Position numbers and translations under genes: made by a program | In this document: piece after piece, positions 1 to 32,900 of the stretch | Numbering within the stretch: position 1 is the stretch's first letter | Layout: every line of letters starts with the position of its first letter | The notes under the pieces: generated by a model | Told to the model about the DNA's origin: nothing | The model's input: the letters and a program-made list of their open reading frames with translations, nothing else | The model's database searches: none | DNA from: a virus | Reading direction: 5' to 3' (one strand) | IMG/VR virus record: IMGVR_UViG_3300028920_000061 | Location: 17,023-81,022 of that record | DNA length: 64,000 nt

Positions 1-17
1 ATGGAAGCGACATTGTA

Positions 18-332
18 ATGGGGATGATATCCTGGGTTGAGTGGCATAAGATTTGTGATAACGTATCCCAATGGACGTATCGTGTAGAGTCTTTATCTGA
101 AAAAATCATTTGGAACGAATTCAAGGCAAGATGCCAACTTCCAAATAACGCTGAGTTTCCAACCGATATCAGTACTACATGGAATAGTAAGCGTCATAAG
201 ATACCAATCGTATCTAATTATCCTGAAGAATGGACATGGAGAGAACTTTCTCAGATTGATCGCCACTGGGCCAAGCAAGCCTACCATTTAGCCAAATCCT
301 ACGGCTACGAATATGATAATTATTTGTTGTAG
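18..332 (+). CDS. Hypothetical protein, probably 5'-truncated by the window edge
   Basis: The frame is open back to the window start and ends YGYEYDNYLL*, directly before a promoter-like motif. Confidence 0.55.
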   Translation: MGMISWVEWHKICDNVSQWTYRVESLSEKIIWNEFKARCQLPNNAEFPTDISTTWNSKRHKIPIVSNYPEEWTWRELSQIDRHWAKQAYHLAKSYGYEYDNYLL

Positions 333-333
333 T

Positions 334-360
334 GTTATTTCATTTTTGATTCTGTAATAA
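334..360 (+). promoter_or_regulatory. Phage promoter-like motif GTTA-N15-TGTAATAA
   Basis: The same motif with the same spacing recurs at 5788, 6684, 17094, 18349 and 18813, always upstream of a + strand unit. Confidence 0.6.
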
Positions 361-403
361 TAATAGTAGAGATGTTTATCCGCTATTTTTTTATGAAGGA
401 GAA

Positions 404-2215
404 ATGATGTATGGATTTGTAGAAACGGATATTGCCGATATTTTGTTGGATCGTAACCTCATAGAGCCGTATGAAGAGTTTGCTACGACAAGCGGTGAGA
501 GGGTAGCTATGCTTGAAAAGGAAGATTTTCTTCTTGTAAAACAAATTTTGGTTCGCATGTGTGGAGAAGAAAAAGTTCAATTACTCAGTAGCGATGTCGT
601 TGGAATGTATATACTTCTTTATCCATATTGGATGCATGAGAATTTGTTTGACGCACTCACACCTGGCCCAGTAAAAGAATCTCCATTATATCTTGAGATA
701 CGAACTGAACCATCAACTTCACGATTTAACTGGGATAGTTTCATAATCTCTTTTAAAGAACTTTTGGATATAATTTTAACTGAAAATGAAGAATGTGACG
801 ATATTGATGAGGAAGAATCGACAGAAGAGGATCCAACGGAAGAAGAACAGGCCGTTCCGCCGAATTTCAATCCAGGCTACAGTTTTGCCAAAGATTTTTT
901 TAAATGTTATGATTTAGGATTCAGGGAAATAGAAATTGATAATATGCAATTTCTTATCCATTGGAATAGTAATATTCTGAACAAAACAGTGACGGAAATT
1001 GCTACACGGCTCAAGAAAAATGTAATTGTGCTTTCAGGATCGTGGTCTTCCAGAACTCAAGGTATTGAAAGGCATAAGGACGCGCTTAATCATGTTCTTA
1101 TCATACATACCAATCCGGATCATTTAAAATTTCTCTACCCGCCAATGGAAATGGAACATACGCTATTTGGGTATGAGTTGAGAAAGCTCGCTCAGATTCA
1201 TGGCAACAGTAGTGATATAAATCATGATCCAAACAATCCTCATCCTATCAGTCCTGTTTATTCTGATTTCGATTATGTATATCGAGATTATAAAACGGGT
1301 ATTGTCTGGGCGTTACAGAAGAATATGCAAATATTTTTCATGTTTGATTTGCTTGATGTTTCTGAAGACCTTCGATATATTGTACTTGAAGAATTGATTG
1401 ATCGATTTAATGGTGCACTTTCGTATGAAGAAATGGTAAAAAGAGATATTGAACATTTCAATATGAAATCTCAGTATATCAAGGAAGAGTTTCTGAGTAT
1501 GGCCATTAAAAATTCTAATAGCCTTATAGAAGAATTAAAAAATCAATATCTTTACGCAAAAGAACAATATGCTGAAGCTCTTGACAAGGCTATGGAGTTT
1601 GGAAAAGTAGCCCAGCGTCTTGAAGAAAATCTTGTCAGCCTTGATGAAGACAAGATTAAAAATAAAGAAGCTGAACGTTGTGAAAAAATGTTTGATGACG
1701 TTCTTAACATACCTAAGGTTGCCGCGATCAAATTAAAAGGAAGTGCCGTTCATGTTTACACGAAAAATATATATGTGAAGCATGATAAAGAAGGCACTTG
1801 GCATGATGTTGGTACGTTCAATATCGAAATAGGAATGTATGGGAATACTTATAACCCATCTAAAACTGTCAAGATATTTAACACCAAACATCAAATGCAT
1901 GCATTTAATTCACAAATGCAAGCCCCTCATGTATTCGATGATGGCCATTTATGTCATGGTAATTTAACTGCTGGTATGATTGATGCCTACAAAAGACGAG
2001 ATTTATACCAAATGATTTTGATGATTATCATGTTCCTTGAAAGTGCGAATCTTGACGATGCCGCTGGAGCCTATTTACCACGATGGCCTGAGGTTTCTGA
2101 AGAAATTGCCACACAACCTGAATCAGATGATAATGAAACAACGGTTGTGTTCCAAGAACAGACAGAAGAAGAAAAAGAATTTGATGAAATACTTGATATA
2201 CCAATTCACATATAG
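404..2215 (+). CDS. Coiled-coil protein with C-terminal prokaryotic E2 (Ubl-conjugating)-like domain
   Basis: AAGGAG RBS; central coiled coil; C-terminal APHVFDDGHLCHGN resembles the PH-x(6-7)-C-x-G E2 active-site signature; same operon as JAB, E1 and Ubl. Confidence 0.65.
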   Translation: MMYGFVETDIADILLDRNLIEPYEEFATTSGERVAMLEKEDFLLVKQILVRMCGEEKVQLLSSDVVGMYILLYPYWMHENLFDALTPGPVKESPLYLEIRTEPSTSRFNWDSFIISFKELLDIILTENEECDDIDEEESTEEDPTEEEQAVPPNFNPGYSFAKDFFKCYDLGFREIEIDNMQFLIHWNSNILNKTVTEIATRLKKNVIVLSGSWSSRTQGIERHKDALNHVLIIHTNPDHLKFLYPPMEMEHTLFGYELRKLAQIHGNSSDINHDPNNPHPISPVYSDFDYVYRDYKTGIVWALQKNMQIFFMFDLLDVSEDLRYIVLEELIDRFNGALSYEEMVKRDIEHFNMKSQYIKEEFLSMAIKNSNSLIEELKNQYLYAKEQYAEALDKAMEFGKVAQRLEENLVSLDEDKIKNKEAERCEKMFDDVLNIPKVAAIKLKGSAVHVYTKNIYVKHDKEGTWHDVGTFNIEIGMYGNTYNPSKTVKIFNTKHQMHAFNSQMQAPHVFDDGHLCHGNLTAGMIDAYKRRDLYQMILMIIMFLESANLDDAAGAYLPRWPEVSEEIATQPESDDNETTVVFQEQTEEEKEFDEILDIPIHI

Positions 2216-2223
2216 GAGGTATC

Positions 2224-3348
2224 GTGCAAATACGATTTTCTCGTGGTACTGGTGTCACTATTGACACTGTTCCGACTCAACTTCTTACATGGGCACAGCG
2301 ATGGTGGGTTGCGGATGATGGCGATTTCTGTCTTCGGTCAGCAATGCCTACAGAGCCTATCAGTAAAACTTTGACAGAAAATGGGTTCAACAATTTCTAT
2401 TATGATGATATCACTAATGTGGTAGCCATCGGTCAAAACATCACTGAAGAACATGTCAATACAGCAAGAGCGGTTGCTGAGGGCGGTGAAGCCGCGCCGG
2501 CTACCCCAAGACCCGTCGCTGCTTTAGAAACTGATATGGGTGAAGTTGAGCCCCTCCAAAGAGAAGAGGAGCCAGTAGAAGGCGTTGATTACGAAATTGA
2601 ACCGGAAGAAGAAGATGACCCCGATGGTGAGGATGAAGACGATCTCGAACGTCCATTCACTCCACATCTTGATCCGGTTGTTGACATCAATAACGATGAA
2701 ATTCTCAAACGCCTTCCACCAATGCTTCGTATGGAAGAAGCAAGCGCAATCAAACTGTATTGTGACAAGCTTCGTGAATACGAACGTGTCTGGAGTCAGG
2801 CGATCACAATGAAGAGAATAATTAACGAGATGATGACCAAAATCGATGAAAACGTCCTTCTGAAAACGGTACGTGACGATATCTCGTATCTTCAGGAAAA
2901 ATGCGATGATGTTGAATCAGTACGGTTTGGAACCGGTGTCAGAGAGTATAATCTGGTTATCACAACCAAAGAAATCATTACAGACGACCAGGAAAAGTAC
3001 GGTCGGCGCAGGCTTGGTGCAATGAGGATCACAATTGATTTGAGATACCTGTATGCTCAAACACCTCCTGGATCGAACTATACCAAAGCGATTGAAATAC
3101 AAAATCTCGACCGGCACCCAAGATTTGGTGGTACTTATTGGGATTGTGGCCATGTGCATCATGAAGATGAAGGTTCTACAATGAGCGCCTGCTTCGGTGG
3201 ATATTACCAACACATATTCGAAGCGTTCGTATCACGGAACCTTCCGATGCTGTTCGATACAATCATACGTTTTATCAAGCGTCCATACGAAATGGATGAA
3301 TGGGGTTGTAAGGTACGCCTCTTTCCGGAGGTAACCAGTGAATCCTGA
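2224..3348 (+). CDS. Second coiled-coil/E2-like protein (paralog of 404..2215 C-terminal half)
   Basis: AGGAGG RBS and GTG start; acidic linker, helical segment, then GHVHHEDEGSTMSACFGG; C-terminal region parallels the upstream protein (D-x-WG/AG-x-x-x-x-x-F/WPEV). Confidence 0.6.
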   Translation: MQIRFSRGTGVTIDTVPTQLLTWAQRWWVADDGDFCLRSAMPTEPISKTLTENGFNNFYYDDITNVVAIGQNITEEHVNTARAVAEGGEAAPATPRPVAALETDMGEVEPLQREEEPVEGVDYEIEPEEEDDPDGEDEDDLERPFTPHLDPVVDINNDEILKRLPPMLRMEEASAIKLYCDKLREYERVWSQAITMKRIINEMMTKIDENVLLKTVRDDISYLQEKCDDVESVRFGTGVREYNLVITTKEIITDDQEKYGRRRLGAMRITIDLRYLYAQTPPGSNYTKAIEIQNLDRHPRFGGTYWDCGHVHHEDEGSTMSACFGGYYQHIFEAFVSRNLPMLFDTIIRFIKRPYEMDEWGCKVRLFPEVTSES

Positions 3349-4315
3349 TTCAAGAAAATGCTCATGGTCGTTTCTTTCCGAAAGGACGGAAACGGCCCCT
3401 AATATTCAATTTACACCAAAGGCCTTGAAATGGATCAAGGCGATGGTTGAAGAACATAGTGAAGAAGTTGGCTTTCTTGGTATTGTTAGAGAGGTTGATT
3501 CTTCATATGTCATTGATGAAATATTCTATCCGAAACATTGCCTTGCTACTTCATCAACATGTGAAATAGCGCCCGAAGGTGAAGTAGAATTGGCGCAATA
3601 TCTGATTGATAATAACAGGGTAGAAGATGTTGCTCGAGTCAGATTTTGGGGTCATTCTCATCATACGATGGGAACAACGCCGTCTGGCCAGGATGACGAT
3701 CAGGCATTACAAAAAATGAATAATAACGGTGCGTATTTCGTTCGCGCCATATGCAACAAAAAAGGCGAAATGTCAGTTTCATTCTTTGATCATGAACGAC
3801 AACTCAAATTTGAGAATGTCAAATGGTCGATATGTGAAAACTACGACGAAATTCTCGCCAATGTTATTTGCGCCACAAATATGGAATCAAATAGTAAGGG
3901 GAAAGTTCAAGCCATACGTGCTGCTATCTCTGCACAAATTGATTACAAAGATGACGAATACAAAAAGATTACCGAAAAAGTGAAAGAGCTCAAAAAGAAA
4001 AATCTCCCGGCATCCGAAACAAGGGGGTTGGCTCGGCAACCATACCAGAGAGGGGTTATACATAGCCCCGGACATTATCCAAACGACATCCTTCCCGGGT
4101 TCCAGCAAGATATGTTCGATGATGATTGGCCCCCGTATGGTCCTGAATTCTATCGGAACAACGCTGGGCAGATGCCTTATCAACGCCGGCAAAGTAATTT
4201 TCCAAAAGTGAATGGTGCAAGAAAAAACAAAAGAAAAAAAAATCGAAACGGGGCTCTTTTGTCCGATAAGGAAATAGATTCGGTTGTTTCAGAGGCATGG
4301 GAGGGTGGATTATGA
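3338..4315 (+). CDS. JAB/MPN+ (JAMM) metallopeptidase
   Basis: EVGFLG...WGHSHHTMGTTPSGQD matches E-xn-HxH-x7-S-x2-D. Confidence 0.9.
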   Translation: MNPDSRKCSWSFLSERTETAPNIQFTPKALKWIKAMVEEHSEEVGFLGIVREVDSSYVIDEIFYPKHCLATSSTCEIAPEGEVELAQYLIDNNRVEDVARVRFWGHSHHTMGTTPSGQDDDQALQKMNNNGAYFVRAICNKKGEMSVSFFDHERQLKFENVKWSICENYDEILANVICATNMESNSKGKVQAIRAAISAQIDYKDDEYKKITEKVKELKKKNLPASETRGLARQPYQRGVIHSPGHYPNDILPGFQQDMFDDDWPPYGPEFYRNNAGQMPYQRRQSNFPKVNGARKNKRKKNRNGALLSDKEIDSVVSEAWEGGL

Positions 4316-5070
4316 TCGACTATCTCAGGCAGCTTGATCTGCTAGACCCGAAACAGATCGGCAATCGTTCTGTCAGCCTGATTGGGGCAGGAGCTACGGG
4401 TTCGCACATTGCATGGTATCTCGCTCAGCTCGGGTGGGGTGCTTCAAATCAAGGTCAAGGCATTCTCAAGGTATTTGATGACGACACAATTGAAGGTCAC
4501 AATCTGGCTAACCAGATATACTGGCCGGAGCATGTCGGCAAGCTGAAAGTCGAAGCTCTCAAAGATATGATAATCAAGAAGTTTGGGTTTGAAATAGAAA
4601 CCCATCCTGAAAAGGTTACTGACCAGAGAAACGACGTTGCAGCAAAATATGTATTTCTTCTTACGGACACCATGAGCAGCCGTGAAGAAATATTTGAGAA
4701 ATGTCTTCATTTCCAATTCGCAACAGACTTGGTGATTGAAACCCGGATGGGTTTGCGAGACGGTCGGGTCTACGCATTCAATCCGAACGATCCTAACCAT
4801 ATTGAGGAATGGAAAAAAACGCTCTATAAGGATGAGGAGGCGTCTGCGTCACTCTGTGGTGCAAGCGCATCCATTATATCCACTGTAACTTTCCTGTCAT
4901 CGCTTGCGGTCTGCCGGCTTGTGCAGCATTTCAATTGCAACTATGGGAGCGACACTCTCCGTGAGGAGGGTAAACCAATGAGGATGTGGAACGAAGTCCA
5001 CTTCTCCCTGTACCCCGAAGCAATGATGTTGCGCCAATTCGGTGAGGCTAAAGAGCCAATAATTTTCTGA
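4312..5070 (+). CDS. ThiF/MoeB/E1-family Ubl-activating enzyme
   Basis: YLRQLD, GAGATGS nucleotide-binding loop, DDDTIEGHNLANQ, GKLKVEAL, TDTMSSR, and SLCG candidate catalytic Cys. ATG at 4312 overlaps the JAB stop (ATGA). Confidence 0.93.
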   Translation: MIDYLRQLDLLDPKQIGNRSVSLIGAGATGSHIAWYLAQLGWGASNQGQGILKVFDDDTIEGHNLANQIYWPEHVGKLKVEALKDMIIKKFGFEIETHPEKVTDQRNDVAAKYVFLLTDTMSSREEIFEKCLHFQFATDLVIETRMGLRDGRVYAFNPNDPNHIEEWKKTLYKDEEASASLCGASASIISTVTFLSSLAVCRLVQHFNCNYGSDTLREEGKPMRMWNEVHFSLYPEAMMLRQFGEAKEPIIF

Positions 5071-5086
5071 CGGAAGGTTTTATCAG

Positions 5087-5554
5087 ATGGTTATCGTTCA
5101 GCTCGTTAAGGTCGGATCTGAGGTCCGTTCTTTCGACATTTCAGACAATCCCACTCTCGGCAACCTGCTTCGCATAGCTGATGAGTCTTTCACTCCCAAT
5201 ACCATTACTATCAATGCCCAGAACGTTGTCAGTGAAAACACCACCCTCCGTGATGGAGACCGTGTTTTTATTGGTAACAAGGTCAAGGGAAATACTCCCT
5301 ATATTGTTGAGTTTATCCGACTCGGGCAGGCTGAGGTCGTTCGCATATCCACTGAGGGTAGTGCAACCATTGGTGACTGCATCAATATGATGAGTGACAC
5401 CAATCGGAACTATTTTATTGGTGGTGATGGAAACGATGTTTTTCAATACCAAATAAGCGGCGTTACCAAACAGTCCAGTGATATTGTTCCTTTGCCATCC
5501 CAGGAGGGCGGAACAGTTCGTGTTATCTGCGCGACGAAGGTAAAAGGCAATTAA
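5087..5554 (+). CDS. Tandem di-ubiquitin-like (two beta-grasp domains) protein
   Basis: Two ~70-85 aa units, each ending KVKGN (LRDGDRVFIGNKVKGN; TVRVICATKVKGN*); follows E1 and JAB. Confidence 0.85.
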   Translation: MVIVQLVKVGSEVRSFDISDNPTLGNLLRIADESFTPNTITINAQNVVSENTTLRDGDRVFIGNKVKGNTPYIVEFIRLGQAEVVRISTEGSATIGDCINMMSDTNRNYFIGGDGNDVFQYQISGVTKQSSDIVPLPSQEGGTVRVICATKVKGN

Positions 5555-5577
5555 GTCGCCACTTTAATAAGCAGATT

Positions 5578-5605
5578 AACCGGCGATGAGAAATCATCGC
5601 CGGTT
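5578..5605 (+). terminator. Perfect 12-bp hairpin (GAAA loop) closing the Ubl operon
   Basis: AACCGGCGATGA-GAAA-TCATCGCCGGTT; the U-tract is weak. Confidence 0.6.
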
Positions 5606-5749
5606 CTATACTGCAGAAAGGAGTAGGCATGTTTCTAACTTTAACCCATCCTCGGAGGTATTGTGTTTCATCGAATTTTCCAAAGCGCAAAAGGGGAAAA
5701 CAACAACCCTACTAGATTGGTGAAACTTGCTACAATTATAAAATCATTT

Positions 5750-5783
5750 GTGGGCCGCGGCCCCGCAAGGGGTCGCCCATTTT
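5750..5783 (+). terminator. Intrinsic terminator
   Basis: GC-rich hairpin with GCAA loop followed by TTTT. Confidence 0.6.
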
Positions 5784-5785
5784 AG

Positions 5786-5814
5786 CCGTTAGTTAAATAA
5801 AAAATATGGTATAA
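5786..5814 (+). promoter_or_regulatory. Promoter motif CCGTTAG-N14-TGGTATAA
   Basis: Identical boxes and spacing at 18347 and 18811. Confidence 0.7.
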
Positions 5815-5846
5815 TAATAATAGAAAACTTTAACAAAGGAGAAGTT

Positions 5847-6668
5847 ATGAAACGCCTTTTTATTATTCTTATGCTTGCTGCTACTGCATTTTCTTATGAT
5901 TCAACATGGGCTCATGCCAAATTTGAATTATCCGCCGCAGTACCAGAATGGTTTTTTCGTCAACATGATACGCTGGTAACATGGAATTACCCTGTTCATG
6001 AGTTTGATTCAGTATGGTACGTCAAAAAACATGTTAACAGCATATCATCATGTTTTGTATCAGATACTTATACACAAATTACCATTAATATTTGTGATAG
6101 TATGGAATTTTCTCAGCGACTTTTTGATGAATCAATTAGTTATGATGAAGATGATTACGGTTTTCATTACAGATCAATGGTCAAGTTATACTTTTTAAGA
6201 ACCGATTTTCAAATGGATAAAGTTTGGTATTGGTTCAGAACAGTTCGTAAACCTCTCGAAAGTTCTCGAACAGATACTATCCCATGGTATAATTATGGAT
6301 GGAGTTGGGACAATAATATCTATGTTCAAGGATTGCGAATTGTTAATAACGACGACGATACGTTGTTATATAGAGTTCCAATAGGATGTAGAATTTGTGA
6401 CCACCTTCTTGTCAAAGGCTTTGTAATGAATATTGATAGCGTTGGCGATCTCGTTTTTGTATATAATCGGTATAATGATTTTCAAAAATTTGACGGCTGG
6501 GAAAATCGTCTTACCATTTTACCAAAAAGGGAAGATATAGTTTCCACCAGCATGCCACAGACGCTTGCACCGTATCGTTTTCAAAATATTTTTCATGAAT
6601 TTGACGCTTTAGGTAGATTAGTTAGAGAAAAGCGTCAATGGCAAATCGTTTTTAAAAAGGCGCATTGA
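5847..6668 (+). CDS. Secreted hypothetical protein (moron-like)
   Basis: Signal peptide MKRLFIILMLAATAFS; C-terminal FDALGRLV...basic tail; has its own promoter and terminator. Confidence 0.75.
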   Translation: MKRLFIILMLAATAFSYDSTWAHAKFELSAAVPEWFFRQHDTLVTWNYPVHEFDSVWYVKKHVNSISSCFVSDTYTQITINICDSMEFSQRLFDESISYDEDDYGFHYRSMVKLYFLRTDFQMDKVWYWFRTVRKPLESSRTDTIPWYNYGWSWDNNIYVQGLRIVNNDDDTLLYRVPIGCRICDHLLVKGFVMNIDSVGDLVFVYNRYNDFQKFDGWENRLTILPKREDIVSTSMPQTLAPYRFQNIFHEFDALGRLVREKRQWQIVFKKAH

Positions 6669-6732
6669 TATGCGCCTTTTTTAGTTATTTGTCAATAGAT
6701 TGTGGTATAGAAATTATGAAAGGAGATTAGCT

Positions 6733-7008
6733 ATGCCAACAGCGTATATTATTTGTGATAACGATTCGGCACTTCATGTTGTTATGGGTAATGACAAGGA
6801 TAAGGCCGCCGACGATCATTATGCTGAACAAGTCAAGAAGAAAATAGCTGACCACGAACGGGAGCAATGCAAGAAGCATTATGGCAATAGTGGTTGGGAA
6901 GAGGTATTCAAACGACATTTTTTTCATATTAACAGGGTTACTGCAGAGGAAGCGCCTAATGAACAAGACTCTCATCATCAACATAAGCATGAGAATACGA
7001 TTGGATGA
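6733..7008 (+). CDS. Hypothetical protein
   Basis: AAGGAG RBS before ATG 6733; preceded by a GTTA-N15-TGGTATAG motif. Confidence 0.65.
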   Translation: MPTAYIICDNDSALHVVMGNDKDKAADDHYAEQVKKKIADHEREQCKKHYGNSGWEEVFKRHFFHINRVTAEEAPNEQDSHHQHKHENTIG

Positions 7009-7123
7009 AGATGTGCAAATCCATGAAGTACTCCAAAACGCCGCCATCAGCTTTCAAGATACTACTGGGAAAGCAGATATCGACGAAGCACATATTTTAG
7101 ATTATTCAGAAGTAGAACACTAG
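6959..7123 (+). CDS. Small hypothetical protein
   Basis: GAGG RBS, ATG 6959, 54 aa. Confidence 0.5.
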   Translation: MNKTLIINISMRIRLDEDVQIHEVLQNAAISFQDTTGKADIDEAHILDYSEVEH

Positions 7124-7139
7124 AGTGTATTCAAACTAT

Positions 7140-7543
7140 GGGCCCGCACTTGGGTTTCGATGTGGGTACTGAATCATATGTAGCATGCCGAGGACGACGG
7201 TTGGCCTCGTTAATCATCCGTCAAAACAACAACTGCCAAAAACGACGGTTGTGCAATGGGCGCTGAGTTCGCAATCCAGTTCGCTGAGATTTGCAACCTG
7301 GCGACCGCACCAGCGCTGGTCTAAAGACCGGCAAACATCACTGATTGACGCCGATATGGCAGTGGTGTAAAACATCGGCTGGACGGAGAGAGGGTCGAAC
7401 TCTCTGTTGAGATAAGACTAGAGTTCCAGTATAGCTGCCGTGTTCAGTAGACGGAACTGACAATAGAAATGGACCGGATAAGCATGTAGAAGCGTGTGTG
7501 GATGTATTTACAGACATCGGTTCGATTCCGATCGGGTCCACCA
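7140..7543 (+). ncRNA. ssrA: tmRNA (transfer-messenger RNA)
   Basis: Acceptor stem GGGCCCG/CGGGTCC with G3:U wobble, A discriminator and CCA; GGTTTCGA near the 5' end; T-arm ATCGG-TTCGATT-CCGAT; GCATG...GAGG/CCTC PK1 region; resume context AACT-GCC; tag ORF 7235-7324. Confidence 0.95.
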
Positions 7544-7547
7544 ACTC

Positions 7548-7576
7548 AAAGGCTGTCTTCGGACAGCCTTTTTTTT
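7548..7576 (+). terminator. Intrinsic terminator of tmRNA
   Basis: AAAGGCTGTC-TTCG-GACAGCCTTT plus T-run. Confidence 0.9.
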
Positions 7577-7588
7577 GAAAGGAGTATT

Positions 7589-8008
7589 ATGCCACCATGC
7601 TCAACATGTAACGGCGCATGCTGTTACCTATTTATGTTACGATGGTCGAAAAGGGATCTTCTGTTAAGACTGTCCGGAAAAGGTATGTTTCGAAATCTTA
7701 AAGTTTCAACTTTTGAAATAATCAAACAGCTAACCTTTCTTCGCGATGCAACCAGTCAATTTGAAAAGAATCGGGATCCATCGGTAAGATTTTTCACCTG
7801 TCTCGCCTTCTCTAATAACAGATGTTCTATTTATAAATACAGAATGGCCTTTTGTGAACCATACGATTGCAAAGGAACCAAACAAATAGCTCATACTATG
7901 TCACTTGATGGAAAACCGCCGCTCCCAATAATGAATCAGGAGGTGGATATTGACAGACAAACAGATTATAGCCTGCAAGTTGCCCGGCGACCTGTTCTCA
8001 TCTCCTGA
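7589..8008 (+). CDS. YkgJ-like Cys-cluster (Zn/Fe-chelating) protein
   Basis: CSTCNGACC ... CLAFSNNRCSIYKYRMAFCEPYDC pattern; AAGGAG RBS before ATG 7589. Confidence 0.75.
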   Translation: MPPCSTCNGACCYLFMLRWSKRDLLLRLSGKGMFRNLKVSTFEIIKQLTFLRDATSQFEKNRDPSVRFFTCLAFSNNRCSIYKYRMAFCEPYDCKGTKQIAHTMSLDGKPPLPIMNQEVDIDRQTDYSLQVARRPVLIS

Positions 8009-8954
8009 AAACATGGAGAAGGAATTCACCGAGCTTGCCCAGCGTTGGCATCCGGACAAGATGGGCGGCAACAGCATTGTTATGGCTCATGTGAATTCTC
8101 TTCATGCGCAGGGGAGGGAGATGGTTGCATCCGGCAATTGGAAATCATCCAATAAACGATTTTTCACCCTCTCTAATGGCAGAACTGTTCGTATAAGCTT
8201 TCTGTCTGAAAATGATTTTGAACTCGGCAAATGGTACCTCTGCGAATCGGTTTGTGTCTATGCTTTCAATACTGGCTCTGCAATAAATTTCAAACTTCCG
8301 AAATTCAGATTTCGCAATACCAGTATGACAGATGAATTTACCGCATATTTGCCAAGAATTATCGACCAGTATGAAGTAAACAACGGGAAAAAGCTCATTG
8401 TCATTAATCGTGAGAAAGACCTTGTTCTTCTACGCGATTTGTTGGCATGGTTTGGAAATGCAGTACCGCCAAAGCATGTAGCGTGGATTCTCAGCTCCCT
8501 TTACAACCTTTGTGCTTTCTTCAAATATAATGGAATTGTTCACCATTCCATTAATCTGAATACATATTTTATTTCCCCAGCAAAACATAAAGGGGTCTTG
8601 CTTGGCGGGTGGTGGTATCACAAAGGGTTCGACCGTCGAATGAAAGTAGTACCAAAATCAACATACGACGTGATGACTCTAGACACGAAAAAGTCCAAAA
8701 AAGCCACGCCCATTACCGATCTCGAATGTGTAAAACTTATAGGTCGTCAGCTTCTTGGAAGTGCCAGTGGGAGCACGCTATATTCCAATCCTGATATACC
8801 GAAGCCAATGATACAATTCCTGAGAACCATCTCGTCTGAGAATGCCTACAAGGAATATGAGGCCTGGACGAATGTTCTACAAGAAAGTTTCGGCCCAAAA
8901 AAATTCATTGAGATGGATTGCAACGCGGACGAAATTTACAAGAAGCCATCCTAA
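7950..8954 (+). CDS. J-domain (HPD) fused to degenerate kinase-like domain
   Basis: LAQRWHPDK J-motif; C-terminal HVAWILSSL...GIVHHSIN...LLGGWWY, a kinase-fold pattern seen next to vWA and PurA-like genes. Confidence 0.75.
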   Translation: MTDKQIIACKLPGDLFSSPENMEKEFTELAQRWHPDKMGGNSIVMAHVNSLHAQGREMVASGNWKSSNKRFFTLSNGRTVRISFLSENDFELGKWYLCESVCVYAFNTGSAINFKLPKFRFRNTSMTDEFTAYLPRIIDQYEVNNGKKLIVINREKDLVLLRDLLAWFGNAVPPKHVAWILSSLYNLCAFFKYNGIVHHSINLNTYFISPAKHKGVLLGGWWYHKGFDRRMKVVPKSTYDVMTLDTKKSKKATPITDLECVKLIGRQLLGSASGSTLYSNPDIPKPMIQFLRTISSENAYKEYEAWTNVLQESFGPKKFIEMDCNADEIYKKPS

Positions 8955-10697: not shown

Positions 10698-11873
10698 ATG
10701 AGAATCAAAGCAATAATTGGAAGTGGCATGGGTGATGAAGGTAAGGGTCGCATGACCGAATACTTTTCCGACAGCAAATCAATTGTTGTACGATTCAACG
10801 GAGGGGCACAAGCTGGTCATACTGTCGTACTTTCTGACTGGGCGCGTCATGTATTTCATCATTTTGGAAGTGGGAGCCTGCATGGTGCTCAAACATATCT
10901 GAGCAAATTTTTTATTGCCAATCCGATGTTCTTCTGTCGAGAGCGTAGAGAACTTCTGGCGAATTTTCAATGTAATCCTGATGTTTATATCAGTCCGTTT
11001 TGTTTTGTTACGACACCATGGGATATGATCATTAATGATCTAACAAATCAGAAAAACCAACATGGTACCTGTGGATTTGGCATTAACGAGACTGTTGAAC
11101 GATGTCAGAAGATGACATTAAATGTCAGTACGCTTCAGGCGGACTACTTTGACGACCTTCTCATGCACATCGTCAATGACTGGGTTCCGGTAAGAATTGA
11201 AGAGCTTGGGCTTGAGCCCGACGCAACATACCGCAAATGGCTTTCAAGCGAGAAGATGATAGACAATTTCAAAGATGATGTCAAATCATTTCTCAATTGG
11301 GTAACGATAGGAGACCCAAACTTTGACTTTGCCGAACAAGTCATTTTTGAAGGCGCTCAGGGACTCATGCTCGATCAGAATCATGAAAATTTCCCATATG
11401 TTACCAGGTCGAATACGGGAACCGGAAATGTCCGCGAACTGATTGAGGATTTTCATCTTCACGATGAACTGGAAGTGACATACGTTACCCGGTCATATGC
11501 GACCAGGCATGGGGCCGGACCTTTACTTCATGAGGATAAGACTCTCCAATATGGCGACCCAACAAACGTTCCAAACAGGTTTCAGGGAAGTCTACGATAT
11601 GGCCTTCTCGATATAAATCAAATTGTTCATGAAATCAATCAAGATATGGTAAATCTAAACGGCCTGGAGTACAATCCAAGTATTGCAGTCACCTGCCTGG
11701 ACCAAAATCCCGGATATTGTATCTGGGATGGTAAGGAAGAGCGCTTGTCACACAGTGAGCTATGCAAGCACGCTCTTGCGGACAATCTCCAGTTTAGCAA
11801 GGCGTATGGGTCCATTGGCCCCAGAACAACTGATCACATGAAAGTGTGGGAAAGGAAAGGGGTGCCAGTATAA
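10698..11873 (+). CDS. purA: Adenylosuccinate synthetase-like protein (divergent PurA family)
   Basis: GDEGKG, RFNGGAQAGHT, FEGAQGLMLD, FPYVTRS, TRHGAGP; canonical TTGR aspartate loop replaced by TNVPNRFQG. Confidence 0.85.
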   Translation: MRIKAIIGSGMGDEGKGRMTEYFSDSKSIVVRFNGGAQAGHTVVLSDWARHVFHHFGSGSLHGAQTYLSKFFIANPMFFCRERRELLANFQCNPDVYISPFCFVTTPWDMIINDLTNQKNQHGTCGFGINETVERCQKMTLNVSTLQADYFDDLLMHIVNDWVPVRIEELGLEPDATYRKWLSSEKMIDNFKDDVKSFLNWVTIGDPNFDFAEQVIFEGAQGLMLDQNHENFPYVTRSNTGTGNVRELIEDFHLHDELEVTYVTRSYATRHGAGPLLHEDKTLQYGDPTNVPNRFQGSLRYGLLDINQIVHEINQDMVNLNGLEYNPSIAVTCLDQNPGYCIWDGKEERLSHSELCKHALADNLQFSKAYGSIGPRTTDHMKVWERKGVPV

Positions 11874-17175: not shown

Positions 17176-17937
17176 ATGGCAAAGGTCCATGAAATTGTTG
17201 CTGTCGAGAAAGACGTGAAGGGCACATTCAATAAGATGCTGGGTGAAACTCGCATGACATTCCTGAAGGGTGAGCATTTCGATGAGCACCTGAAAGAATA
17301 CCAGCCGCTCAATGCTGACGATCGTGAACAGCTCGATGCCGAACACAAGCCCATGGCTGACACTGTCCCCAGCAAGTTGTCATATTTCATGGGGCATATG
17401 AAGAGAATGTTCGACTTGGTGATACAGAAAGAAGTATCCAATCTGGACGCCAAAGCTGATGTCACTGTTCAAACAGACAGTGGTGATGAAGTTGTTTTGT
17501 ACGAACAGGCTCCGGTTGCGGCTATTGTTCAGCTTACCAATCTGATGGAAAGCGTTCGGATTCAGGTTCTTTTGAATATCCCCACGCTTGATCCGGCAAG
17601 ATCCTGGGCATCCGACGGAAATCGTCAGGACGTGTTTGTCACCCCCGAAGTCAGACGCGCCAGAACCAAGAAGGTGCAGGTCCCTATCGAATTGTCGCCG
17701 GCTACAGACAGACACCCGGCGCAGGTTCAGCTTGTCACGGAAGATGTGACTACCGGCCACTGGGTGCAGAAGTACTGGTCCGGTAAGATATCTTCGGCTG
17801 ACAAGTCAATGATTCTGAAACGAACCGACGCCCTCATAGCAGGCCTCAAAAGAGCCAAGTCGAGGGCTAATGAGAGTGAGGCGAAGAAGGTTGCCATAGG
17901 CGATCGCTGCGCCAAATGGATTTTGACAGGAGAATAA
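17176..17937 (+). CDS. Conserved helical hypothetical protein upstream of a structured RNA
   Basis: Strong AAGGAGG RBS and own promoter motif (17094). K-x-HEI-x-AVEK, Y-x-P...D-x-EQL, IPTLDP, RTKKV...AT-D-RHPAQV are motifs of a widespread uncharacterised family (recognised from memory, not searched). Confidence 0.85.
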   Translation: MAKVHEIVAVEKDVKGTFNKMLGETRMTFLKGEHFDEHLKEYQPLNADDREQLDAEHKPMADTVPSKLSYFMGHMKRMFDLVIQKEVSNLDAKADVTVQTDSGDEVVLYEQAPVAAIVQLTNLMESVRIQVLLNIPTLDPARSWASDGNRQDVFVTPEVRRARTKKVQVPIELSPATDRHPAQVQLVTEDVTTGHWVQKYWSGKISSADKSMILKRTDALIAGLKRAKSRANESEAKKVAIGDRCAKWILTGE

Positions 17938-29400: not shown

Positions 29401-29905
29401 CGGGTTTTGAAGTATATGGTAAGCTTAAATATTCCTGATCGATTTTGTATCCGGTTTCATAAATTACAGGAGCAAAATAAAAAGAATGATACCTGCTGAT
29501 TGTCCCATCTGCGTCAGTAACCAGCTCAGATTGATTAATGAATTCGATAATATCAAAAGCAGCGTGCCTTTGTCCTACTTTGGAATACTGTTTGGTAGAA
29601 AGTTCATGCTCATATCCAAGCTTTTCATCTGCTATCAGAAGTATAATACCGTATACATCTGTAAGCTGCGTCACATTGGCGTATTCACTAATGAATATGT
29701 CATGGTTGCTGAAAAATGAGACGTATCCGACGTGCGGATTGAATGATGTATTGTTATTGAACTTGTGAAGAAAGTCGGCAAACCAGACATACCTCTCCGC
29801 AACAAACCCCTTGGCTGCCCCGGAGGCAAGAAAGCGTGACGACTCTGAAAAATCATTTATCAAAGCGTGGTGATACGATTCTTTATCTGGATTTATGCAT
29901 TTCAT
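26441..29905 (-). CDS. Large virion structural protein (1154 aa)
   Basis: Long Tyr/Asp-rich ORF in the structural operon. Confidence 0.75.
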   Translation of the reverse strand: MKCINPDKESYHHALINDFSESSRFLASGAAKGFVAERYVWFADFLHKFNNNTSFNPHVGYVSFFSNHDIFISEYANVTQLTDVYGIILLIADEKLGYEHELSTKQYSKVGQRHAAFDIIEFINQSELVTDADGTISRYHSFYFAPVIYETGYKIDQEYLSLPYTSKPGYDLYIWAHRSFSPLTLKDYSFSVVMGTYNADCTSAAQALVANADIAHTTRLLDYKVVPTDINWGFCDGGIVEFIHYPYDFKSEEPWTCHPYIGLPLFYNQVYDGDDKVDGQFQEATIALLTTRLLPQLSQKNVIEKQKLAHSGPVTPEGKSFFHAPGLSYEEDDQSQIAFHISRNNVYDEGGGNYVIGQEMYDSSNFIRGIDVQTERNRRYSSIVTTEPYMKVRPLANGQAIDYKIVGADGGDISFSWPKAWTACVKIRAPRAYIRELDRELDREEYNTDILHVLHLNGPEMKMEGEDTEAYDTFKGASLNDYFKREEYALDDLLGGLVGDTGVKRFSFYTNSAASPEVADIESYYTDQKIRICGAGHYSKKNGMGSASVYAKLYCTNYVPGGPDTVSDSLITMPQWIHQIDNYELFRPMLRIPGIHGYVKIIRRDPYIEPVLLSDGREEIMYEVEFPFCAGSYQVRVAGQSEFKKTQIFKKSSYINAGSWALDSNNHYDSYNARYAPEGDDAFCRIDYFKGMDSPTEDTIESDPESAGGHLTQMVSRPANRLIYPAHLCYYRVDETSIFISMTKPRQTYPTFGTFDIDIDDSLFSHNPADMKMVWNVDNRVWKYGDNKFSSYINREYPSYVLELDTAELSSTTGRKQDEYAGIPDIKRWIYSKVSAFCHTAYWPPATSNEDYTDGTRYKPTEESLSDVIIEVWDTAYPVNGSTRAMWRPFSMTLYDNKKYTAKTLVSGLHAAVSKVLVHNNLYFVILEKYDSSAIDYGLTDEEAAEVDEKSNLVMYDSETGRMYHVAYVEQDTVYPNNTRLKVYFTTPSASYNITDGSGIPANIYDWEGPVSLHKPYSKLNKKTDFEFKSCETQFSSSAVDTLFKTRHMDFGSRGDDSDFDRYVDENSKIYIRIRPLKARTYPVSYGNFGTGSDTMQYIDSRVTGVVNDYTNMPWWNPITPPSGDWDDGLDWSKIDIVEYIRRFGLSYFSLLSR

Positions 29906-32900
29906 AGGTTGAAAATTGGCCCTCCGCCAAATTTGACATTCTTAATCGGATTCTTTGCCCCGGAGATACAAAGGGTCACAGCCTCATTCAAAAGAAGCTG
30001 AAGCTTATTCTCCTGTTCATTAAAATAGAGTGAATACCTGTCATCATCAAGCATTCTACCAAGAATGAATGGGGATTCGCTGTTTATCTTTGTTGCAATA
30101 ATTGTCATTGATTCCGCATCATAATACGCAGTAAATTCTTCCACTACTTTTCTAACCTTATCGGTTTTCAAAAGAATAGAAGGTTCAGCCTTTAATTGAA
30201 TTGCGATTTTCTGTTCACGTATGAACTCTTCAAGCTCATCCTGATTGTATTGAAATCTTGCATACAAATCTTCATACACTGTATCATTTTTCAGACAAAT
30301 AAGACGCTTATTTTCTCGATCAAGGTCAATTCGTATTTGATCAACAGACCGCACATCAGATGATTCAAGATCAAAAATGTGAATAGCCAGCTCATAAGGG
30401 CCTATATCAATAAATCCACCCCTGAATTGCCTATCGCTTCCTTCTATATCAGTCGTCATTGAATACAAGGTAACGGCAGAATCGTTTCCAGTATTGGCAA
30501 CAATACTTGTAAGAAGTGGCTTGAGGTTTGATTGAGTCATAACTGTTGATGGAGCTGAAAAACTTTCAATTTCTGTGAACTCAGGATCTTCGTTTTCTTG
30601 AGGATTAACAACTCTCGAAGACGTTATACCTATATCAAAGTCACCAGATCCGATATTGTATGTTAAACCATTGTACATGTAATCATCAAGAGAGCCTGTG
30701 CATGTTTTAAATGTGAGAGTGCTTGACTCGTCACAAATGAATATCGAATTGTAATTTTTGTGACCTGTCAGTGTGGTTTTGGCCAAATACATCGTTGATA
30801 AAGAACCGTCATTAAAATATAAAACTATCGAATTCACGATTTCGATATTGGTATCAGAATTGACAAGTGTATCATTGTTTACCTGAACGATGCAATTGAT
30901 TAAAATGATTTTTGACGTAAGTGCAGAGTGCGATTCGTTCAGACTGTAATTTCCACTTGAGTCAACACTGTAAATTTTTATGTTTTCAAAAGTCAAACTG
31001 CCTTGTTTGCTGTCATCATCGAAAAGGCCATCTGAATTATACCGTATTGATGCCGGGCCCTCAGCCGCCTCGTTTGGATCAGTCATCACCTTAACGGTTC
31101 TATCTTCACGATTGTCAAATTCGAACATTCCTTCAAATGTCTTATTGGCTTCTACATATATGAGTATGTTATCAATTGTGTTTGTTGCCAGATATGCATT
31201 AAGAGTTGTTATAGTGTGAAACTGATAAATGGTTGAAACGCTGTCATAAAAATTATCTCTTAAATAAAGAGTTTGCGTTGGAAATTCGTCAGTTGCTATT
31301 CCAAATTGATTTGATATACTGACGGGGCCTATTTGCAGGGACCCTGTTCCTATTAACTGACTTTGTTCTATGGCACCCCTATCCCATTGCTCCTCTTCAC
31401 GATCTACACCGCGGCAGTCTTCAAAGAAATAATATGGTGAGGTTTCTCGGAGATCATAAGCTGAATTGATTGCGACAGAATCTACATCCAAGTCAGGGGT
31501 GTAATCTTCAGTTAATCGGTCAATGAATTTTATATATTGCTTGTTGATATTTCCATTATTAGTTCCGGCAGTCACGTCTCGGCTGATGTTGTACAACAAA
31601 AGGAATTTGCCGGTATTCTCAGGATGATCTTCTATGAAATCTCCAGCAACATTGTCTTGACATATGTTATTGTACATCTGCACAATAGTAGAAAGTCCAG
31701 AACTTTTAATTTGATAAATTCCATAATAGCAATTGACAATTGTGTTATTCATCACCCAAACATAATTGGTATAACCGCCTTCCATTGAGATGCCGCCTAT
31801 GCATCTGCTTAGAATATTATTGACGATTACATAGATTATACCATTGACCATTCCATCGTCGCAATCACAATGAATGGCTTTGGCGCCACATTCATGAATT
31901 ATGTTTGAATCAATTAAGAACCCTTTTGAATATTGTATGTATATACCGCCACCGTTTGCATTACTATTTTCAAGAATAATTCCAGAAATTTCAATATACC
32001 TTGCATTATTAACATTAATGGCATAGCCTAAATCGTTCAAAAGAACTTCGGATCCAGAGCTGGGGTTCCCTTTGTGCCTGTGAGGCACATTGCAGTGTTT
32101 TGTAATATCAATTGGTGAGAATATGCGTATGAAATAATCAACATCGCATGTGTACCCGGAAATCGTACATGCACTTGAAACAAGACCGACGCTGTCATCT
32201 GAAACAACAATATTGACCTGTACTTCAGCAGAAGTTAAATCACTTCCTACAATTGTTTCAATCCCACCGGAAAATGCACTTGGAAGATTACTGAATTTTC
32301 TCTTTATAATAGTAATCAGATGTTCACCAGAAACAGCATCATCACCATTTTCATCAGATATATACCAGTTTAAACTGTCAATTTTTTCTCCAAGATATCC
32401 AATAACAGTGGAGACGCCCGTTATAACCACATCACCTGATGCAATTTTATCGTTTGTTTGAGGGGTCCCAAACGTAATGATGGAACCGATTACGGTGGCC
32501 TTTGCGGCAGATGCTGTGTGATAATTCTGTGTAATATCTCCAACAGAAAAGAACACTTTTTTTGCTTGATACTCAAGGGCACCCATGTCCCAGAATCTGC
32601 CACGGGCATTTCCAACGGCGTCTGTATCAAAAGGATATGTGGTATCACCGTTAAGCTGTGTGCCAACCCCTCGAGGAGAGTCTTTTGTTAGATTATAATT
32701 TCTGTTTGGAACATCTTCAAATTCCGCTGTAGTTGAATCAAGATCCCCAGTTCCGCCACCGGTACTCGCATCTTCAGCCATACAGTATCTCGTATTGGGA
32801 ACGCCACCATAACATCCTGAAGGGCAATTCTGAACAATATTATTTGTCAAGTTGCACAATACTGTAGAGTATATCCCCACATCGCAATCGTCTATGGTGT

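Follow-up and report, generated by a model that had tools for sequence, protein, structure and literature searches.

Does a phage of bacteria encode a system of its own for conjugating ubiquitin-like proteins (Ubls)? Until now, the Ubl conjugation characterised in prokaryotes has been a defence of bacteria against phages (Bil, type II CBASS and probably Bub). The question is raised by a five-gene operon in a 64,000-nucleotide stretch of viral DNA, bases 17,023 to 81,022 of the 81-kb IMG/VR record IMGVR_UViG_3300028920_000061, which is called the window below. An initial annotation had read this operon as a virus-side ubiquitination machine. The parts of such a machine, namely an E1, a JAMM peptidase, a tandem Ubl and two paralogous proteins of the UBC/RWD type, were all found. 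That they work together as the self-contained Ubl-conjugation module of a large bacteriophage is a reading which we hold with moderate confidence.

The five-gene operon and its boundaries

The five open reading frames (ORFs) which the initial annotation had placed at 404-5554 were recovered at the same coordinates. They lie on the plus strand and form one tightly coupled unit in the order g1, g2, JAB, E1 and Ubl. The features of the unit are as follows, with lengths in nucleotides (nt) or amino acids (aa).

334..359, plus strand: promoter-like motif GTTA-N15-TGTAATA, 44 nt 5' of the g1 start; putative promoter
404..2215, plus strand: g1 ORF, 603 aa; N-terminal region conserved, then acidic linker, helical region and UBC/RWD-like domain at the C-terminus
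1694..2119, plus strand: E2-like domain of g1, residues 431-572, with invariant His509 (1928-1930) and Cys517 (1952-1954)
2224..3348, plus strand: g2 ORF, 374 aa; N-terminal domain short, then acidic linker, helical region and C-terminal domain of the g1 type
2887..3345, plus strand: E2-like domain of g2, residues 222-374, aligned with the g1 domain, with invariant His310 (3151-3153) and Cys323 (3190-3192)
3338..4315, plus strand: JAMM/MPN+ protein (JAB), 325 aa, with the motif H106-x-H108-x7-S116-x2-D119 at 3653-3694 and invariant Glu43
4297..5070, plus strand: ThiF-type E1, 257 aa (252 aa from the ATG at 4312), with invariant Cys187 at 4855-4857
5087..5554, plus strand: Ubl ORF, 155 aa
5087..5293, plus strand: Ubl module 1, residues 1-69, ending K67-G68-N69
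5294..5554, plus strand: Ubl module 2, residues 70-155, ending K153-G154-N155, then the stop codon
5578..5605, plus strand: stem-loop with a 12-bp stem, 24 nt 3' of the Ubl stop; putative terminator
5788..5813, plus strand: next copy of the promoter-like motif, 5' of the next gene (5847)

The junctions between the genes are those of a translationally coupled operon. The g1 stop codon is spanned by GGAGG and is followed by the g2 GTG after 8 nt. g2 and JAB overlap by 11 nt, and GGAGG lies 6 nt 5' of the JAB GTG. JAB and E1 share an ATGA overlap at 4312-4315 with GGGAGGG ahead of it, so that the ATG at 4312 is the likely start of E1. The 16-nt gap between E1 and Ubl contains GGAAGG.

A promoter motif and a closing hairpin had also been described around the operon, and both were found, although their functions as promoter and terminator are putative. 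In the form GTTA-N15-TGKWATA, the motif occurs six times in the window (0.11 expected), always on the plus strand, and six copies were reached in 0 of 100 shuffled sequences. The copies at 334 and 5788 bracket the operon, whose interior contains no copy. In its form, the motif resembles an extended -10 promoter. The hairpin at the operon end has a folding energy of -29.4 kcal/mol (z = -5.9), which was equalled in 0 of 200 shuffles. No T-run follows it, and a generic terminator scan did not pick it out. Generic scans for sigma70 promoters and for terminators yielded about as many matches as expected from shuffled sequence, and the operon ends did not stand out in either. One of the six promoter-like motifs precedes a gene for a full-length DUF7873 protein (17176-17937, plus strand, 1.3e-61).

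The E1, the JAB, the Ubl precursor and the E2-like pair

The E1 matched the Pfam family ThiF at 6.4e-18 (65.2 bits, cutoff 28.1). In PADLOC, it scored best against the E1 part of Cap2-type E1-E2 models (up to 2.8e-14). Its best NCBIfam match was PRTRC-ThiF, TIGR03736 (3.4e-14), whose 52.8 bits are far under the cutoff of 144.75. Because it aligned end to end with the annotated 251-aa ThiF of E. coli, it is classified by its sequence as a minimal one-domain ThiF-type adenylating enzyme. The residues R11, G30/G32/G35, D61/D63, K84, T123-D124 and R129 are invariant and common to E. coli ThiF. The Arg finger, the GxGxxG motif, the acidic pair, the Lys and the T-D-x-M Mg site are alike in the two enzymes. 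Cys187 is the sole invariant Cys of the E1. It is located in the same loop as ThiF Cys184, 3 residues off in the alignment, and we take Cys184 to be the acyl-intermediate residue of the crossover loop. The other Cys residues of the window E1 are at 136, 206 and 214, so that no CxxC exists, whereas ThiF has the zinc pairs Cys169/172 and 240/243. The sequence matches of E1 in the PDB included UBA6 (8e-8), PaaA (5.5e-7) and MccB (6e-6), the last two covering only the generic Rossmann part. The initial annotation had stated that sulfur-pathway genes are missing. This holds for the part that was scanned: no sulfurtransferase, rhodanese or ThiG/MoaE-type partner was detected in the operon or the scanned neighbours.

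The JAMM motif is defined as E...H-x-H-x7-S-x2-D. In the JAB, Glu43, H106, H108, S116 and D119 are invariant in all 5 aligned orthologues, and the motif pattern matched the window protein once, at residue 106. Pfam Prok-JAB matched at the JAMM stretch with E = 1.2e-3 (19.1 bits, cutoff 25). The orthologue from the close relative L014 gave 2e-4 and 21.7 bits, also under the cutoff, and three other orthologues had no Pfam match at E <= 0.01. Since the motif is complete and invariant and the weak Pfam match falls exactly on that stretch, we accept JAB as a putative JAMM peptidase on motif grounds.

The Ubl was modelled with AlphaFold2 from a 60-sequence alignment (predicted local distance difference test, pLDDT, 88). 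The model retrieved 71 PDB chains at E <= 1e-3 by Foldseek. The best one was linear di-ubiquitin (9.9e-7), and FAT10 and ISG15 (about 1e-6) were other top matches, as well as the di-Ubl of OASL. The modelled fold is therefore a tandem di-beta-grasp like that of linear di-ubiquitin, ISG15 and FAT10. BLASTP gave no alignment between module 1 and module 2, and the tandem nature is deduced from the fold and the repeated K-G-N. Profile search collected 73 family members, 3 of which have a precomputed ThiS/MoaD Pfam match.

K-G-N is found at both module ends throughout the 60 sequences, with K in 60/60, G in 59/60 and N in 60/60 at each site. The Asn is thus more conserved than the Gly. It is also most often the final residue: 33 of the 60 sequences end with it, 17 carry 1-4 further residues and 10 carry 7-33. 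The 294-aa member P0089 consists of four near-identical head-to-tail Ubl repeats, each ending KVKGN, plus a 3-residue tail. By its sequence, it looks like a prokaryotic-virus analogue of the polyubiquitin genes. In P0086, Gly is changed to Ala at both K-G-N sites together. In a distant lineage, the Ubl is a single 69-aa module ending VVGN. Taking the P0089 repeats, the paired change of P0086 and the single-module lineage together, we argue that each module is probably a modifier of its own, that both sites are read by a single enzyme, and that the gene encodes a precursor to be processed in the style of polyubiquitin. The JAB may cut after the Gly or after the Asn. As to the long tails, six of the ten (P0018, P0022, P0023, P0044, P0047 and P0073) end in -AA like an ssrA degron, which might make the unprocessed Ubl precursor unstable.

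g1 and g2 had no family in Pfam (E <= 0.1), PHROG or NCBIfam. For g1, 14 close homologues were found among 5.8 billion proteins, and a 17-sequence alignment was built. The two proteins had been proposed to be paralogues with acidic linkers. The linkers are visible in the translations, and the paralogy was supported by three comparisons. BLASTP aligned g1 with g2 across the helical region and the C-terminal domain (E = 0.009). By tblastn, g1 cross-matched g2 orthologues in other loci at 1e-6 to 4e-7. The C-terminal domains of 5 g1 and 5 g2 orthologues gave a clean alignment with 11 invariant positions. Among these are His79 and Cys87 in domain numbering, which correspond to His509 and Cys517 of g1 and to His310 and Cys323 of g2. 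In a wider alignment of 81 domain sequences, whose members are 15-59% identical to the first sequence, N63, H79, C87, G89 and D122 are invariant.

When the domain profile was searched against 1.84 billion representatives, 2,157 were found at E <= 1e-3, 926 at 1e-10 and 107 at 1e-30. Among the 150 of the 2,157 representatives listed, 84 are of the g1 type, 61 are of the g2 type and 5 carry two domains. The two-domain relatives were considered as fusions (Rosetta stone). This was dropped, as the two domains were separate adjacent ORFs in the metagenome loci fetched. The search defines a large unannotated UBC-like family of 2,157 cluster representatives at E <= 1e-3, for which Pfam has no model. 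It occurs as a pair of paralogues that is conserved and whose arms evolve fast.

The fold of the domain was assessed on an AlphaFold2 model of the g1 domain (pLDDT 94.7; predicted template modelling score 0.88). All of the Foldseek PDB matches listed were E2 or UEV chains (best E = 0.016, template modelling score 0.45-0.50, probability up to 0.98). VIA, an aligner independent of Foldseek, matched many E2s at Z 5-6.8, with a root mean square deviation of about 3.3 Å over about 109 of the 142 residues. Its list was dominated by E2 and RWD chains, and the bacterial CdnG-E2 and Cap2 were at Z 5.1. In the viral structure library, further uncultured-phage proteins, all uncharacterised, contain the domain (best E = 1.8e-4). 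The initial annotation would have failed if the two products had no UBC fold. With two aligners, the g1 model retrieved E2, UEV and RWD folds almost exclusively, and the g2 domain aligned with it. The models thus point to the UBC/RWD superfold, at superfold level and with middling scores. In PADLOC, 2 of the 81 family members touched the E2 region of one Cap2 model, and g1 did so faintly (E = 5.6e-4).

The secondary structure (DSSP) of the g1 model places the His past the last beta-hairpin and the Cys right before the first long helix, with the spacing His-x7-Cys. E2s have the same order in their HPN...Cys arrangement. Because of this placement of the invariant His-x7-Cys, an E2-like carrier appears more likely than a passive RWD head on this model.

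The remaining parts of g1 and g2 gave less. Searches of g1, g2, the domain profile and the g1 profile against solved structures with phmmer or hmmsearch found nothing meaningful. In the ESM Atlas, residues 1-360 of g1 had no usable match, and g2 matched only "hypothetical protein" clusters below 0.9, mostly viral. As these Atlas searches were uninformative, any function given to the N-terminal arms is conjectural. The initial annotation had also imagined a heteromeric E2/E3-like scaffold that would tag host proteins or counter host Ubl defences, and this part of its interpretation is conjectural. As putative coiled-coil proteins with RWD-like heads, g1 and g2 would have the architecture of Spc24/Spc25. 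A complex prediction with g1 335-603 and g2 145-374 (score 0.01, mark 0.32) gave evidence neither for nor against a heterodimer. Two divergent Ubl modules stand beside two divergent E2-like proteins, and one may speculate that each module has an E2-like protein of its own.

The phage lineage that carries the module

The gene order was examined in 14 contigs other than the window itself. The order g1-g2-JAB-E1-Ubl was found in 10 of them, including a distant lineage (L019) whose E1 is 39% identical. Three contigs were too short to tell (2.3-4.3 kb), and one had the g1-g2 pair only. In this last contig (L016; Ga0268299_1002987, 5098-8016, high GC), the pair is followed by two unannotated ORFs (151 and 265 aa) without Pfam match. 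The identity to the window in the best tblastn segments was 59-83% for E1, 35-69% for JAB, 31-77% for Ubl, 28-46% for g1 and 26-40% for g2. By this sequence comparison, g1 and g2 diverge much faster than E1.

Upstream of the operon, 7-8 of the 10 loci share genes for an SNF2 helicase, a PD-(D/E)XK/Cas4-like nuclease, a helix-turn-helix protein and a VRR-NUC nuclease. The downstream genes are common to close relatives only. Among 185,579 cellular species, each represented by one genome, the g1 family had 2 matches, and both were on contigs of metagenome-assembled genomes (MAGs). No match was found in 50,697 deposited phage genome records by blastn of window 1-8000 or by tblastn of g1. Because of the shared gene order, the upstream synteny and the near-absence from cellular genomes, we regard the module, on comparative grounds, as a stable, vertically inherited part of a phage lineage, located at the end of a replication/recombination block. 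The view that the element is viral and the module a conserved part of its lineage was hereby borne out.

We read the window as part of a large tailed phage of bacteria, in a lineage whose genomes measure roughly 170-210 kb. The record is about 45% complete according to CheckV, and the contigs with relatives of the window are 149-207 kb long. The window encodes a baseplate-wedge homologue and long structural ORFs, and its structural block is on the minus strand. A transfer-messenger RNA (tmRNA) gene lies at 7140-7543 on the plus strand, 1.6 kb 3' of the Ubl operon (Rfam RF00023, 141 bits, gathering score 47), and is kept in L014 (13685-14087). Since the tmRNA is a bacterial feature and is present in both the window and L014, the host is taken to be bacterial. 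An archaeal host, which came up through the MAG labels of L014 and P0043, was rejected because of the bona fide tmRNA in the window and L014. L014 (CAZUBH010000002.1, 168 kb) was deposited within a "Thermoplasmatales archaeon" MAG and is collinear with the window phage (E1 up to 83% identity); its archaeal label is probably a binning artefact, with a phage genome in an archaeal MAG.

Other features of the window were also recorded. The predicted tag of the tmRNA is unusually long and ends ...APALV. A 334-aa protein at 7950-8954 (plus strand) has a J-domain-like N-terminus with an HPD tripeptide and no Pfam match at E <= 1e-3, and it is kept in L014 (14625-15650, 51% identity). Together with the Ubl operon, the tmRNA and this protein give the neighbourhood a proteostasis flavour. 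A PurZ-like gene at 10698-11873 (plus strand; phrog_1211, 8.1e-54) suggests a 2-aminoadenine (Z) genome, or at minimum the pathway for its synthesis. Inside the structural block, an ORF of 2,441 aa at 29902-37227 (minus strand) contains right-handed beta-helix repeats (Pfam Beta_helix, 8e-17).

Proposed mechanism, rival readings and known systems

Which genes are present, their conserved order, their folds and invariant residues and the build of the precursor come directly from the analysis, whereas the chemical steps, the cleavage position and the targets are proposals. The operon would be transcribed as a single unit from a sigma70-like extended -10 promoter. The 155-aa Ubl would be a precursor, whose C-terminal tail would be trimmed by the JAMM peptidase. 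The same enzyme probably cuts between the modules too, in the manner of polyubiquitin. The minimal, probably homodimeric E1 would adenylate the exposed Ubl C-terminus and take it onto Cys187. The Ubl would then be passed to Cys517 of g1 and Cys323 of g2, where the adjacent invariant His would assist catalysis. Target choice would fall to the N-terminal parts of g1 and g2, which are long and evolve fast, so that each protein would be an E2 with a built-in E3-like specificity arm. The JAB may also reverse the marks. As the module stands at the end of a conserved block of replication/recombination genes, we lean towards host or phage proteins that are modified for the benefit of the phage in the replication phase. 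If so, trypsin would leave a Gly or Gly-Asn remnant on the modified Lys of the targets. There is also a bolder version, to which we give a small chance. In this version, the polyUbl is cut at each K-G-N into distinct modifiers, and each modifier is written by one E2/E3 hybrid onto replication or repair proteins of the host or the phage. The mature end would be Gly-Asn, joined by a chemistry of no known Ubl system, such as an E1-driven, MccB-like Asn succinimide.

Several observations weigh against the conjugation reading. None of the 81 members of the domain family matched the E2 families of Pfam, NCBIfam had none for g1 and g2, and the HPN tripeptide is absent from the domain. The structural scores are middling. 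The best Foldseek E value was 0.016, and VIA gave no match at Z >= 8, its line of caution, so that the likeness may reflect a mere common arrangement. Non-catalytic RWD domains (Knl1 at Z 6.8, Spc24/25) scored level with true E2s in VIA. The E2-fold evidence comes from the model of the g1 domain, to which the g2 domain is linked through the alignment. The JAB is under the Prok-JAB cutoff, and its profile had no match among PDB sequences. In L016, profile search did not detect E1, JAB or Ubl in 14.8 kb, so the g1-g2 pair is not strictly tied to them. A cap that is discarded has no need to be invariant, and an invariant terminal Asn is unexpected for a simple one, so that the Gly-carboxylate model may not describe the chemistry.

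There are also other explanations. The same biochemistry could serve a phage-carried anti-phage defence (superinfection exclusion), with Bil-like tagging of the structural proteins of competing phages. The characterised relatives, Bil and type II CBASS, are defence systems, and in the available Bil text a phage tail protein is tagged. An arms race, be it with hosts or with other viruses, would fit the fast evolution of g1 and g2. We consider this role fairly unlikely, because in all the lineages examined the module occupies a fixed place in a syntenic replication/repair block and not a variable island, and because it is nearly absent from cellular genomes (the 2 MAG contigs mentioned). In addition, PADLOC matched only the E1 part, through Cap2 models, and no integrase or lysogeny gene was seen among the genes scanned, which cover part of the genome. 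Another explanation leaves g1 and g2 without catalysis. They would be RWD/UEV-like adaptors whose paired heads bind the Ubl or the targets, and the E1 alone would conjugate. Conjugation without E2 is known from the SAMP/UbaA and TtuB/TtuC systems. The kinetochore RWDs, Ctf19-Mcm21 included, scored as high as E2s. The missing HPN motif and E2 profile match would agree with adaptors, and so would the finding that the second domain of the five tandem-domain relatives does not keep His and Cys invariant. RWD-like inactive E2-fold proteins were noted in polyUbl operons, in the accessible part of Iyer et al. 2006. In a purely structural head, one would hardly expect His79, Cys87 and Gly89 to be invariant across 81 diverse members, and the E1 retains its loop Cys as thioester-relay E1s do, which makes the adaptor explanation unlikely to us.

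The invariant Asn also raises the possibility of a non-ubiquitin chemistry. The E1 could act on the C-terminal Asn as MccB does on MccA, where adenylation is followed by a succinimide and an N-P linkage, or the Ubl could serve as a sulfur carrier. Instead of Lys-linked tags, this would yield a protein or peptide with a modified end. Asn is present in 60/60 sequences at both sites, against 59/60 for Gly, it is the last residue in 33/60, and the distant single-module Ubl also ends in Asn. MccB and PaaA were among the PDB sequence matches of the E1, but UBA6 was better than both, and their matches are confined to the generic Rossmann part. The substrate here is a folded beta-grasp, even a polyUbl of four repeats, and not a short peptide, and two UBC-like proteins with an invariant Cys and a JAB are always alongside. 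As to a sulfur carrier, the operon and the neighbours scanned contain none of the partners named above, and the E1 lacks the CxxC pairs of ThiF. Together, these points make such a chemistry very unlikely. We retain Ubl conjugation through the E1 and the E2-like pair as the preferred reading.

Among the known systems, Bil resembles the module, since its operon, too, combines an E1 and a JAB/JAMM peptidase with an E2-type carrier and a Ubl, with Cys-based chemistry expected, so far as the available Bil text goes. In the same text, the Type I BilA resembles the window Ubl with its two beta-grasps. In the Type II BilA, a conserved Gly is followed by up to 9 residues, which BilC removes; the conserved Gly of the Ubl family studied here, with its putatively removable tail, is a parallel. 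The differences are also clear. Bil is located in a bacterial defence island, whereas the window module belongs to the core genome of a phage lineage. The window has two E2-like paralogues of 603 and 374 aa, whose N-terminal arms are long and for which no E2 profile gave a match. BilD is described with inactive-adenylation and CYS domains, but the E1 of the window is a single ThiF domain of 257 aa. The Ubl motif of the window is K-G-N, with an invariant Asn, and is repeated after each module. PADLOC v2.0.0 returned no Bil-named match, and whether it holds Bil models is uncertain.

Type II CBASS is similar through the E1, which scored best against Cap2 models (2.8e-14), and through the JAB partner, as Cap3 is the JAB of CBASS. 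The faint match of the g1 domain to the E2 region of one Cap2 model points in the same direction. Cap2, however, is a fused E2-E1 that acts on a CD-NTase, whereas the E2-like proteins and the E1 of the window are separate and their substrate is a beta-grasp Ubl. The proteins scanned, which cover part of the window, include no CD-NTase or other cyclase and no effector. A CBASS-type system was rejected because E2 and E1 are unfused and no CD-NTase was seen among these scanned proteins. As for Bub ("6E" polyUbl; class 6e of Iyer et al. 2006; Ye et al. 2024, preprint), the accessible parts of these sources describe Ser/Tyr oxyesters, Ubl-E2 and JAB-E1 fusions and a DUF6527 protease that is always present. 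In the window, the Cys is invariant in the E1 and in both E2-like proteins, the genes are separate, and the five operon proteins have no DUF6527 match. With Ser/Tyr there and a conserved Cys here, the comparison with Bub is loose. The PRTRC-system ThiF family is related through the E1 by its best NCBIfam match, but far under the cutoff.

Phage-borne pairing of a Ubl with a JAB is known from the tail-assembly proteins I (Ubl) and K (JAB plus NlpC/P60) of phages lambda and T1, according to the accessible part of Iyer et al. 2006. These have no E1 or E2 and belong to a tail gene cluster, whereas the window module lies in a replication/repair block and the structural genes are on the other strand. 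Since the module is far from the structural block and does not share its strand, a Ubl for tail assembly of the lambda type was rejected. E1-only genes are described for Asgard viruses in the available part of a preprint (Rambo 2021). In the literature searched, so far as its accessible text goes, these two cases were the only phage or archaeal-virus precedents. No complete phage-borne Ubl set and no description of this E2-like family was found there, while the supplementary catalogues of Bil and Bub (Chambers Table S1, Gong Table S1) may list phage-borne operons.

The Ubl of the window is also similar to eukaryotic polyubiquitin precursors and to ISG15/FAT10, which have head-to-tail Ubl modules with a common short end motif and a cap or tail after the last one. 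The difference is that the modules of the window are divergent and end in K-G-N instead of G-G, and that their processing would be performed by a co-encoded JAMM enzyme. In conclusion, the kind of system is known, and what appears to be new is a Ubl-conjugation module in a phage core genome, with a new paralogous UBC-like pair, a minimal E1 and a K-G-N polyUbl precursor. If our reading is true, the virus side uses the same chemistry as the bacterial defence systems, which mirrors the eukaryotic viruses that bring or hijack ubiquitin enzymes.

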